NCBI GenBank assembly: GCA_964589955.1
Contig: CAZPVF010000001.1
Coordinates: 1 to 62,008 of the forward strand
Direction: 5' to 3'
Length of the DNA stretch: 62,008 bases
Source: Candidatus Woesearchaeota archaeon
Lineage (GTDB): Archaea; Nanobdellota; Nanobdellia; Pacearchaeales; GW2011-AR1
Part shown: in pieces, positions 50,815 through 52,716 of the stretch
Position numbering within the stretch: the stretch's first letter is position 1
Layout of the letters: each line of letters opens with the position of its first letter
Notes under the pieces: generated by a model
Seen by the model: the letters and a program-made list of their open reading frames with translations, nothing else
The model's database searches: none
Told to the model about the DNA's origin: nothing
Position numbers and translations under genes: made by a program

Positions 50815-50844
50815 TTTTCCACTGGAAACGCTGGGGCTCCGACA
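50815..50844 (+). promoter_or_regulatory. ORB-like (origin recognition box) 30-mer, copy A
   Basis: TTTTCCACTGGAAACGCTGGGGCTCCGACA: TTCCA-N3-GGAAA dyad plus GGGG string, as in archaeal Orc1/Cdc6 binding sites. Confidence 0.6.
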
Positions 50845-50934
50845 CATATTTTAAAAAGAATTTTATCGACGGAAAGTACTAAGCAATAGTAATAAAAACG
50901 AAATATTTATATAGTAAACAGCCCTCATTTCTAT

Positions 50935-51555
50935 ATGTTTTTATGGTTTAGAAAAAATAAAGAGGTTGCACGTGTTGAAGAGGATACAAAGAAAGGATTT
51001 GAAGCTGTAAAAAAAGATATTACTTCTATGACTGGTTGGATTAAACACCTAGATTCTGAAAAAAACATGCAAAAAAAAGACATTGATGATATAAAAACTG
51101 TTTTATCGTCGATGCATTCTGAAATTGAAAGTCTGAAAAATATTCTTGCAATGATGAATGAAATGAAAGTTAAGCCGTCATTCCAAACACCTAAACAGGT
51201 GTTTGATAAACAGGCAGGTGTTTATGCTGTTCAAACAGGTGTTGAAACAGGTGTTCAAACACCCAATTTAGACCAATTTTCAGTAACTGAGAAAGCAATT
51301 TTGTGGATACTTTTAAATAGTGACATGAAGCTGAGTTACGATGATCTAGCTGCAATTTTAGGAAAAACACGTTCAACAATTAGAGGCCAGATAAATAGAA
51401 TCAAACAAAAAAAAGAGAATATAATAAGTGAGATAACAGAACAAAATGGTAAAAAAAGAGTCTATATTGAAGACCATATAAAAGAAGAATTAATGAAAAA
51501 CTCAAAAGTAAGAGTAGAACATAAGAGAAAATCTAAGAAAAAAAGCAAAAAATAA
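50935..51555 (+). CDS. coiled-coil plus C-terminal winged-helix DNA-binding protein (paralog 1)
   Basis: 206 aa; N-terminus FEAVKKDITSM...EIESLKNIL; repeat linker; C-terminus VTEKAILWILL...SYDDLAAILGKTRSTIRGQINRIKQK; Lys-rich tail. Confidence 0.6.
   Translation: MFLWFRKNKEVARVEEDTKKGFEAVKKDITSMTGWIKHLDSEKNMQKKDIDDIKTVLSSMHSEIESLKNILAMMNEMKVKPSFQTPKQVFDKQAGVYAVQTGVETGVQTPNLDQFSVTEKAILWILLNSDMKLSYDDLAAILGKTRSTIRGQINRIKQKKENIISEITEQNGKKRVYIEDHIKEELMKNSKVRVEHKRKSKKKSKK
51185..51268. repeat. five AAACAGGTGTT-type repeats inside the linker-coding part of the 50935-51555 CDS
   Basis: AAACACCTAAACAGGTGTTT (8-bp-arm palindrome), then AAACAGGCAGGTGTTT, CAAACAGGTGTTG, AAACAGGTGTTC, AAACACC; encodes QTPKQVFDKQAGVYAVQTGVETGVQTP. 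Confidence 0.7.
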
Positions 51556-51577
51556 GGTAAAATATGTAAAAAATACT

Positions 51578-51896
51578 AAAAAGTGAGAAAAAGCACTAAA
51601 ATAAAGGGTTTTTAATTTATTAAAAATCAAAAAGTGAGAGTTAAAAAAGGTTTATTTTAGACTAAATTAAGTTTAAAATATCAAAAATAGAGAGTTATTA
51701 GGGCCTAAAAGTATAAAATTTAAAGAAATGAGGGTTAAATGGGTAAAATTTGTTGTGTAAAAGTAAAAAATGAGAGAATTACGTTTAAAAAAATATTCTA
51801 AATCCAAGAAAATGAGAGTTGAATTAAAGAGTAATGTATAAGGGATTTTAGGAAAAACTTATTAATTTTATGCTGATTTAAAAGCGAGAAAGGGCT
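51578..51896 (+). repeat. array of seven imperfect about 20-bp direct repeats (consensus AAAAnTGAGAGTTAwwwrGG), iteron-like
   Basis: Core GTGAGA/TGAGAG/TAGAGA/GCGAGA starts near 51583, 51634, 51688, 51729, 51771, 51813, 51884; all same orientation; spacings 51, 54, 41, 42, 42, 71 bp; lies in the convergent intergenic region. Confidence 0.7.
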
Positions 51897-51975
51897 GAAT
51901 TTAGCCATTTCAACAAATAGAAGTCTATTTAGATAGTTATTCGGTGAACGTAAAAACTAATTAATGCTAAATAAT

Positions 51976-52716
51976 TTATATCTTAATAAGTTGCATTATG
52001 GTGGATAATGACGCAATTTTTTTTAAATCAGGGGATACAGACAGCTGTACACATTTATTATTTAATTTCTTTTTGTCGACGGGAATTCCTTTAAATATTA
52101 GCCTTCCTATATAGTCTCTAATAGAGCTCTCTGTTAGATTTAGTTTTGTTGCAAGGGTCTTATAGTCTGTGAATCCCTTCTCTTCGTCTAGCTGATAAAG
52201 TGTTGAAAAAACAAGAATTTCTTTTTCTGTGAGTCTCTTAAACTTAAGCCTTATTTCTTTTTTAAGGGGCTCTAGACTATCTAAAATTTCTGCAGCACTC
52301 AAAATTGGATTAGGATCTTTAGGAGTAGTTTTAAGCATGATTTTATCGTCAAACAAGTAATTTTCTGTCTGTCTGTCTGTCTGTCTGTCTGTCTGTCTGT
52401 CTGTCGGAACCCCTCCATTTCCAGTGGAAATATGCCTAATTTGGTCATTTCTAGGCTTAATATGTGTCTGATCTGCTGAAGAAATCGTGTTATTTGTGGG
52501 AAAAGGTTCTTTATGTGTCTGAATTATAGGTTTGGTTGTATATTTATTTTTTTTAATAATTTTTAGCTCATCTTGTCTAATTTTTTGCATATCTTTAGAC
52601 AAAAGTCCGAGCCGCCAGTTGACTTCATTAAGTGTGTTTTTTAGTGAATCAATTTCAAAATGAAGTGAATCAATATCTCTTTTTACTTTTTTAAAAGCGT
52701 CTTTAATTTGATCCAT
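51976..52716 (-). CDS. coiled-coil plus C-terminal winged-helix DNA-binding protein (paralog 2) with a (TDRQ)n linker
   Basis: 246 aa; N-terminus FKKVKRDIDSL..EIDSLKNTL; linker TDRQTDRQTDRQ; C-terminus LTEKEILVFSTL...DYKTLATKLNLTESSIRDYIGRL. Confidence 0.6.
   Translation of the reverse strand: MDQIKDAFKKVKRDIDSLHFEIDSLKNTLNEVNWRLGLLSKDMQKIRQDELKIIKKNKYTTKPIIQTHKEPFPTNNTISSADQTHIKPRNDQIRHISTGNGGVPTDRQTDRQTDRQTENYLFDDKIMLKTTPKDPNPILSAAEILDSLEPLKKEIRLKFKRLTEKEILVFSTLYQLDEEKGFTDYKTLATKLNLTESSIRDYIGRLIFKGIPVDKKKLNNKCVQLSVSPDLKKIASLSTIMQLIKI
52365..52405. repeat. tetranucleotide microsatellite (CTGT)10 on the plus strand, (GACA)n on the coding strand
   Basis: Ten perfect units counted directly; lies inside the 51976-52716 CDS between the coiled-coil and wHTH parts. 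Confidence 0.95.
52402..52431 (-). promoter_or_regulatory. ORB-like 30-mer, copy B (inverted relative to copy A; inside a CDS)
   Basis: Reverse complement ATTTCCACTGGAAATGGAGGGGTTCCGACA, 25/30 identical to copy A; encodes ISTGNGGVP. Confidence 0.6.

Follow-up and report, generated by a model that had tools for sequence, protein, structure and literature searches.

In Sulfolobus, Aeropyrum and Pyrococcus, the origin recognition boxes (ORBs) of oriC1-type replication origins are bound by Orc1-1 and consist of a dyad (TTCCA-NN-GGAAA), a spacer and a G-string that gives the box its polarity (PMC12141716). Two of these Orc1-1 sites, ORB2 and ORB3, are polar and stand in inverted orientation, so that MCM is directed into the duplex-unwinding element (DUE) between them (PMC12141716). 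Here, we describe a box of the same build, ORB-B, in a stretch of 62,008 nucleotides (the window) from a Candidatus Woesearchaeota archaeon (contig CAZPVF010000001.1). As with the oriC1-type ORBs, ORB-B lies a few kb from orc1/cdc6, in a genome encoding an Orc1-1-type initiator. Unlike them, it does not stand at the intergenic border of a DUE; it is located inside an open reading frame (ORF), here called gene2, 1.4–1.9 kb from the DUE. It also differs in having a conserved YTYCRACA tail with a tetranucleotide repeat, and in being the best-conserved box of its region, where the DUE-flanking boxes are degenerate. No description of ORBs in Nanobdellota, of the gene2 family, of its conserved peptide or of the repeat was found in the searchable literature, and an ORB that lies within a gene, far from the DUE, and is better conserved than the origin's own boxes is a new form of this known kind of site. 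ORB-B is probably a DNA-constrained recognition site for Orc1-1, the fourth and origin-distal ORB of an extended origin region.

The parS sites of bacteria are located within spo0J/parB coding DNA. In Sulfolobus, the main chromatin immunoprecipitation (ChIP) signal of WhiP at oriC3 falls inside its own ORF, whiP, and the Orc1/Cdc6 proteins have non-origin ChIP sites (PMC3607249). ORB-B would likewise be a cis-acting chromosome-maintenance site in the coding DNA of an origin-proximal gene for a DNA-binding protein. Unlike WhiP and parS, it matches the box of the initiator and not, as far as is known, a site of the encoded protein, and its dual coding constraint is seen across hundreds of genomes. 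Haloarcula hispanica oriC2D and E. coli datA also have initiator boxes outside a DUE and near the initiator gene. These clusters restrain initiation, for which binding or titration of the initiator has been proposed; oriC2D is a separated ORB-rich region that negatively controls oriC2 (PMC3936714). Whereas oriC2D is a cluster of 11 ORBs in 722 bp of intergenic DNA, ORB-B is one intragenic box, rarely two. The dense cluster of an initiator-titrating locus was not seen, with one box per locus and two in L036, P0131 and P0169.

The initial annotation had described two similar 30-mers, here ORB-A and ORB-B, in inverted orientation. Direct comparison and a repeat search of the window confirmed both at the positions and strands listed in Table 1, with 25 of 30 bases identical; the repeat search reported an inverted repeat of 29 nt, 86% complementary, with 1557 nt between the arms. 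In the 62 kb there are exactly two occurrences of the dyad TTCCACTGGAAA, where 0.66 would be expected even with one mismatch allowed, and A and B were the only sites to match the ORB pattern TTCCANNGGAAAYNNNGGGG without a mismatch. Both contain the core TTCCA-N2/3-GGAAA with 0 mismatches, and in both a GGGG follows 3 nt after GGAAAY. ORB-B is made up of the dyad TTTCCACTGGAAA, a spacer, GGGG and the tail TTCCGACA. The only other good matches in the window were the three boxes next to orc1, ORB-C, ORB-D2 and ORB-D1, with one or two mismatches, in agreement with the annotation's view that A and B are ORB-type boxes of better fit than those next to orc1. Its reading of copy B was also borne out: B is translated in frame as ISTGNGGVP within gene2, in a protein linker for which AlphaFold predicts disorder (predicted local distance difference test of ~40, residues 61–132). 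No overlapping ORF of at least 50 aa was found at ORB-B in another frame or on the other strand. That 80 further species have kept this DNA shows that the match is more than chance.

For this comparison, loci from 80 related genomes of different species were fetched (1.17 Mb; 81 loci with the window). Homologues of the gene2 protein number more than 2,200, carry the labels Woese-, Pace- or Nanoarchaeota and fall into 901 clusters at 50% identity. Along the otherwise variable linker, conservation in the protein alignment was highest at the peptide ISTGNxGVPTDRQTDRQTD. The DNA encoding it was near-invariant, (A/T)TTTCCA-NN-GGAAA(T/C)-NNN-GGGG(T/C)T-(CCA/TCG/CAG)-ACAGACAGACAGAC..., and the consensus of ORB-B over the related loci was TTTCCA-NN-GGAAAY-NNN-GGGG-YTYCR-(ACAG)4-13. 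ORB-B was present in all 81 genomic loci, always inside an intact ORF and in the segment encoding the disordered linker. The strict core was retained in 76 of these, and the remaining 5 were one base off (GGAAA to AGAAA or CGAAA). The element was also present in 147 of 150 cluster representatives, and an exact-pattern scan of metagenome contigs returned at least 120 loci with the motif. Among the metagenome matches listed, 108 had a winged helix downstream in the same frame, 10 were on truncated contigs and 2 belonged to very divergent members of the gene2 family that keep the exact DNA motif; none was intergenic and none was frameshifted.

Codon usage was counted in 76 loci with a mean GC content of 31.5%. 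The Ser codon TCC and the Gly codon GGA were used in all 76 (background shares of 0.10 and 0.38, respectively), the Gly codon GGG and the Asp codon GAC in 74 (0.19 and 0.28), and the Gln codon CAG in 75 (0.27). Variation within ORB-B was limited to the two bases in the middle of the dyad and the three of the spacer, and showed no codon periodicity. At these positions all three codon positions vary, as does the amino acid (E/Q/G/D/K/R/V), and they are exactly the positions that are unspecified in ORBs. As a control, protein-invariant residues of the winged helix-turn-helix (wHTH) domain in the same genes (KKEIRxKFK and LTESSIRDY) had a top synonymous codon share of 0.33–0.82, which indicates that synonymous sites are saturated at this divergence. 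The frozen codons of ORB-B, the restriction of variation to positions free in ORBs and the scrambled codons of the wHTH domain thus point to a constraint on the DNA. This comparison of the 30-mer with the surrounding codons, which the initial annotation had proposed, strongly favours a DNA-level site, and at the level of codons purifying selection on the ORB-B DNA itself, inside coding sequence, is established.

Two explanations in which the DNA is not itself the target were weighed against these data. Selection on the peptide ISTGNxGVPTDRQ, with microsatellite homogenisation behind the identical codons, draws on the near-invariance of the peptide and on the ability of slippage to hold (ACAG)n units identical, with three-unit steps preserving the frame. 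It is extremely improbable: rare codons are frozen in the non-repetitive part of the ORB too, amino acids are free exactly where an ORB accepts any base, and the same-class ORB-A stands in non-coding DNA. Moreover, the linker is predicted to be disordered, so no fold explains the conserved ISTGN peptide. A constraint on the gene2 mRNA, for instance through RNA structure, protein binding or recoding, is very unlikely. The dyad would form a hairpin of merely 5 bp, GGAAA changes to AGAAA or CGAAA without a compensating change, and the same box recurs at C, D1, D2 and A, on one strand or the other of intergenic DNA that is not transcribed. No Rfam family was found in the ORB-B region, and there were no frameshifted or alternative-frame alleles among the genomic loci and the listed metagenome matches. 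Such a constraint would account for the invariable transcription of ORB-B in the same sense and for the confinement of (ACAG)n to the gene2 mRNA.

The distribution of full ORBs, defined as dyad, N3 and GGGG, was determined by scanning the 1.17 Mb from the 80 related genomes. The 109 matches comprised 78 ORB-B, 17 ORB-C, 8 ORB-A and 6 others, the last being three displaced ORB-C, two second copies in the same linker and one unrelated site. As 108 of the 109 were at syntenic origin-region positions or in the same linker, a dispersed repeat at many non-origin sites, which the initial annotation had named as the outcome that would count against an origin-type box, was not observed, and the terminal inverted repeat of a mobile element was likewise rejected; the gene carrying ORB-B is vertically conserved. 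Viral contigs contained 0 matches to the motif, and a viral or plasmid origin of the box was rejected. As judged from these genomes, ORB-B is established as universal, polar and confined to the origin region. In a few members, tandem ORB/ISTGN modules were present ~93–114 nt apart within the linker (L036, positions 10171-10320; P0131; P0169), and these in-frame pairs indicate that the module duplicates as a unit, with the frame kept.

The boxes next to orc1 were compared with the published origins. The D1 and D2 boxes read towards orc1 and ORB-C reads away from the DUE at its opposite side, so each box turns its dyad towards the DUE and its G-rich end away from it. This '--+' arrangement around the DUE was conserved in related loci, in which the intergenic regions between orc1 and the 86-aa PRC-barrel gene had a GC content of 13–30%. 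The start-to-start spacing of D1 and D2 was ~97–99 bp in nearly every genome. By orientation and order, the D1/D2–DUE–C arrangement fits the picture of ORB2 and ORB3. D1 and D2 each had a conserved tail of their own (D1 ...CGTGTGGG, D2 ...GGTGTTYTTCTTTTT). ORB-B, 1.4–1.9 kb beyond ORB-C, shares its orientation, and the dyad of ORB-B is the same as in the DUE-flanking boxes of the same genomes. Box quality was compared in 57 loci, using TTCCANNGGAAA as the strict core and scoring GGGG at +3. ORB-B had the strict core in 53 of 57 loci and GGGG in 55 of 57; for the orc1-side boxes the figures were 33 and 0 of 121 sites, and for ORB-C 4 and 15 of 57 loci. No other box of the region comes near ORB-B in its fit to the canonical form.

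The genome encodes an Orc1-1-type initiator. The best solved relatives of the Orc1 protein are S. solfataricus Orc1-1 (2qby_A, E-value 8e-103) and A. pernix ORC1 (2v1u_A, E-value 8e-91), and its winged-helix recognition segment is near-identical to theirs. ORC1/Cdc6 has been reported to be a single-copy core gene of the phylum (10.64898/2026.05.13.725050). From the pan-archaeal Orc1-1 box, the Orc1-1 orthologue in the genome and the reported single-copy status of ORC1/Cdc6 in the phylum, we infer that ORB-B would be occupied by Orc1.

ORB-A was far less widespread. With a score of at least 21/24, it was present in 13 of 72 related loci (~18%), mostly the closest relatives of the window. In these 13 loci, it was always 107–136 bp from the start of gene1, the gene that converges on gene2, and always read towards it. 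The consensus of the class was TTTTTCCAnnGGAAAyGCwGGGGCTTCGACACAT. A recent duplication of B was rejected as the source of A, since the window's A has the signature GCwGGGGCTTCGACACAT in common with A copies elsewhere and not with its own B; this class-specific signature indicates that A and B are two old classes of site.

The initial annotation had treated A and B as a pair, and this part of it was not supported. Between them lie 1.6 kb of coding DNA, towards which both G-strings point, and they do not form an inverted pair bordering an AT-rich DUE next to orc1/cdc6. The spacer between the convergent gene1 and gene2 ranged from 54 to 703 bp across related loci (median 207), a variation in length on which a conserved DUE between A and B was rejected. 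Its presence in only ~18% of relatives, together with a G-string that faces B, indicates that A is not one half of a DUE-flanking pair. We therefore consider a second origin, with A and B as its ORBs and initiation between them, most improbable. The near-identity, high quality and inverted orientation of the boxes speak for such an origin, as do a 420-bp AT-rich spacer with repeats between gene1 and gene2 in the window and a minimum of the window's cumulative GC skew near 49–50 kb. ORB-A is missing, however, in ~82% of related loci, the spacer is highly variable, the G-strings point inward whereas the dyads of the canonical origin face its DUE, and GC skew tracks the gene strand at this scale.

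Several further motifs were noted around gene1. The gene1/gene2 spacer of the window contains five same-strand copies of AAAA(A/T)G(A/T)GAG(A/G)GTT, 40–54 bp apart (51629-51820). In the gene1/gene2 spacers of related loci, the motif AAAAGTGAGAGTTA was found 98 times in the sense of gene1 vs. 5 times on the other strand, an approximately 8-fold enrichment over background. The 21-mer GTGCACAAAGGTAACCTAAGT lies at 50615-50635, 5 nt past the stop codon of the upstream ORF. It belongs to a family whose consensus, GTGCACTWAGGTTnnCTWWGT, contains a 17-nt palindrome. The 63 copies from 47 related loci are all upstream of gene1 and on the gene1-sense strand, often as two copies ~0.4–1.1 kb apart; a Xer recombinase gene is nearby. 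The palindrome TTTATCG(N)CGATAAA / TTTATCGNCG (50695-50709, 50862-50871 and 51102-51111) had 4 matches vs. 0.03 expected. In most related loci, a copy of TTTTrTCGwCGrAAAA is located directly upstream of the B recognition element (BRE) and TATA box of gene1, and this palindrome looks like an operator.

The (ACAG)n tract abutting ORB-B is read as (TCTG)10.5 on the plus strand of the window, where it is a perfect tetranucleotide microsatellite in an intact ORF and the highest-scoring tandem repeat. The related loci had 4–13 units, with near-perfect unit counts peaking at 4 and at 7–10, and the perfect run of the window was joint-longest among the 81 species. A change of about three units at a time would leave the frame intact. 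Runs of at least 2.5 units were almost absent outside the ORB-B position (7 in 1.2 Mb). Contingency loci are phase-variable genes with intragenic tetranucleotide repeats, and the ORF of gene2 likewise contains such a tract, perfect and up to 10 units long, with a unit length that is not a multiple of 3. Unlike the repeats of contingency loci, (ACAG)n is conserved across species and is not strain-variable, and its first units are nearly invariant. It was in frame in all 81 genomic alleles and in all 108 complete metagenomic alleles among the matches listed, although consensus assemblies would miss minority variants; phase variation was rejected on these 189 alleles. A wHTH-only isoform, made from an internal start codon or promoter past the repeat, was also rejected, as the Met of 'MLKTT' was not conserved in the gene2 alignment.

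Other motifs recur between the linkers and intergenic DNA. TYCRACACAY, represented in the window by TCAGACACAT, is also the tail of ORB-A. Within 200 nt upstream of ORB-B it reached 110 copies in 58 of 81 loci, an enrichment of ~480-fold. The gene1 protein has the same architecture as that of gene2, with distant similarity in the HTH only (hhalign probability 87%). Its linker peptide VQTxVQTxVQTP is encoded by tandem CAAACA-NN-TGTT units, and the variable residue is always encoded by NNT (72 loci), which yields AACA-NN-TGTT palindromes as in the AAACAGCTGTTT array upstream of gene1; the gene1 linker, too, is constrained at the DNA level. In the window, AAACAGCTGTTT had 11 matches vs. 1.9 expected, clustered at 50670-50810 and in the gene1 linker, and the array was likewise present in related loci. 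The flanking repeats bear no resemblance to the Sulfolobus ucm motif ATTATACAAAC, which was rejected as a counterpart (PMC12141716). Judged by their motifs, the gene1 and gene2 linkers look like arrays of DNA sites that are read through by the ribosome.

These repeats raise the possibility that the wHTH proteins of gene1 and gene2, and not Orc1, are the main readers of the conserved DNA, with the linker-coding binding arrays forming an origin-proximal centromere-like or nucleoid-organising platform, comparable to parS inside parB/spo0J. The candidate motifs would be (ACAG)n, TYCRACACAY and AACANNTGTT. Both proteins have DNA-binding wHTH domains, (ACAG)n is unique to the ORB-B spot, TYCRACACAY occurs both upstream of ORB-B and as the tail of ORB-A, and the linker motifs recur in adjacent intergenic DNA, as seen in the AACA-NN-TGTT array upstream of gene1 and the NNT codon. 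The dyad and G-string, however, are the pan-archaeal Orc1-1 box and match the DUE-flanking boxes of the same genomes, so the wHTH proteins account better for the flanking repeats than for the ORB itself. As the main explanation this is unlikely; it is compatible with a composite site for Orc1 and a partner.

The window is a segment of an archaeal chromosome with ~29% GC, a ribosomal-protein cluster and tRNAs. In essentially all loci, DP1 and orc1 are transcribed away from the block of D1, D2, DUE and C on one side, and on the other side the PRC-barrel gene, p135, p92 and gene2 with ORB-B are followed by the opposing gene1 and, further on, Xer. The PRC-barrel, 135-aa and 92-aa trio between the DUE and gene2 kept its order in almost all related genomes, and transcription of all three is directed away from the DUE. 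Family annotation of the small genes neighbouring gene2 was uninformative. At 46429-47067, an ORF with an HNH endonuclease domain and the 'Recombinase' domain of serine recombinases adjoins a Xer-type tyrosine recombinase gene (47080-47907).

Table 1. Positions of the boxes, repeats and genes of the extended origin region in the window.
Feature	Position	Strand	Remarks
ORB-A (copy A)	50815..50844	+	TTTTCCACTGGAAACGCTGGGGCTCCGACA; full ORB ~90 bp upstream of gene1 start codon; reads towards gene1
ORB-B (copy B)	52402..52431	-	ATTTCCACTGGAAATGGAGGGGTTCCGACA; in linker-coding part of gene2; read ISTGNGGVPT
ORB-C	53988..54007	-	Far side of DUE; same orientation as ORB-B
Candidate DUE, AT-rich	54008..54245	.	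orc1-adjacent origin
ORB-D2	54246-54265	+	orc1-side box; reads towards orc1
ORB-D1	54345-54364	+	orc1-side box, 99 bp from D2; reads towards orc1
AAACAGCTGTTT / GTGTTTA repeat array	50670..50810	.	Dyad side of ORB-A, upstream of gene1
gene1	50935..51555	+	206 aa: coiled coil, linker, wHTH; converges on gene2
gene1 linker	51190-51261	+	Tandem 12-bp units (Tandem Repeats Finder period 12), AACA-NN-TGTT palindromes; encodes VQTGVETGVQT
gene2	51976..52716	-	246 aa: coiled coil (2-58), disordered linker (61-132), MarR-like winged helix (164-245)
(ACAG)10 tract	52364..52405	-	(TCTG)10.5 on +; abuts ORB-B; read as TDRQ repeats
Two TCAGACACAT motifs	52462-52471, 52513-52522	-	In linker upstream of ORB-B; window version of TYCRACACAY
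Three small genes	52772-53831		PRC-barrel (86 aa), 135-aa protein without family, 92-aa weakly wHTH-like protein
orc1/cdc6	54463..55674	+	Orc1-1 type; Pfam match; ~2 kb from gene2
PolD small-subunit gene	55691-57247		
1159-aa ORF	57234-60713		After PolD small-subunit gene; taken as PolD large subunit

In the arrangement that we favour, the extended origin would run from D1 and D2 through the DUE to C and then, after 1.4–1.9 kb, to B. The Orc1-1-type initiator would recognise ORB-B, and selection at the DNA level keeps the box intact within the linker-coding segment. ORB-B would be a constitutively occupied, origin-distal Orc1 site that modulates initiation by anchoring or titrating the initiator, couples transcription of gene2 to Orc1 occupancy, or does both. 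A partner protein, for which the wHTH proteins of gene1 and gene2 are plausible candidates, would bind the adjoining (ACAG)n and TYCRACACAY repeats. ORB-A would be an extra site of the same class, gained in the lineage of the window upstream of the gene1 promoter.

Several points weigh against this proposal. Orc1 binding in this clade is something that we infer, and one ORB is a weak titrator beside the 11 of oriC2D. The YTYCRACA tail and (ACAG)n are outside any described ORB, and another protein could be the main reader. The orientation and in-frame position of ORB-B could be inherited and not selected, and its sequence alone does not tell apart the roles of anchor, titrator and roadblock. 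A more far-reaching variant, which we regard as speculative and rather unlikely, is that the linkers of both wHTH genes exist for their DNA and not their peptide, as arrays of ORB, (ACAG)n, TYCRACACAY and AACA-NN-TGTT sites that would assemble Orc1 and the genes' own products into a self-encoding origin-organising or centromere-like module. The ORB and the phased tetranucleotide could then parallel the DnaA-box and DnaA-trio of bacteria.

Woesearchaeota and Pacearchaeota are abundant, uncultivated DPANN archaea with very small genomes, and their replication origins had not previously been described. The locus offers a concrete, conserved origin architecture of two boxes, a DUE and one box, with an unexpected intragenic fourth box that is stronger than the other three. 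It also nominates gene1 and gene2 as candidate origin-associated factors, and its motifs are defined DNA probes for in vitro tests. At ORB-B, a probable protein-binding DNA site and a reading frame have occupied the same nucleotides through deep evolutionary time. Natural examples as clean as this are unusual, and it suggests that some 'conserved disordered motifs' in proteins may reflect constraints on DNA.

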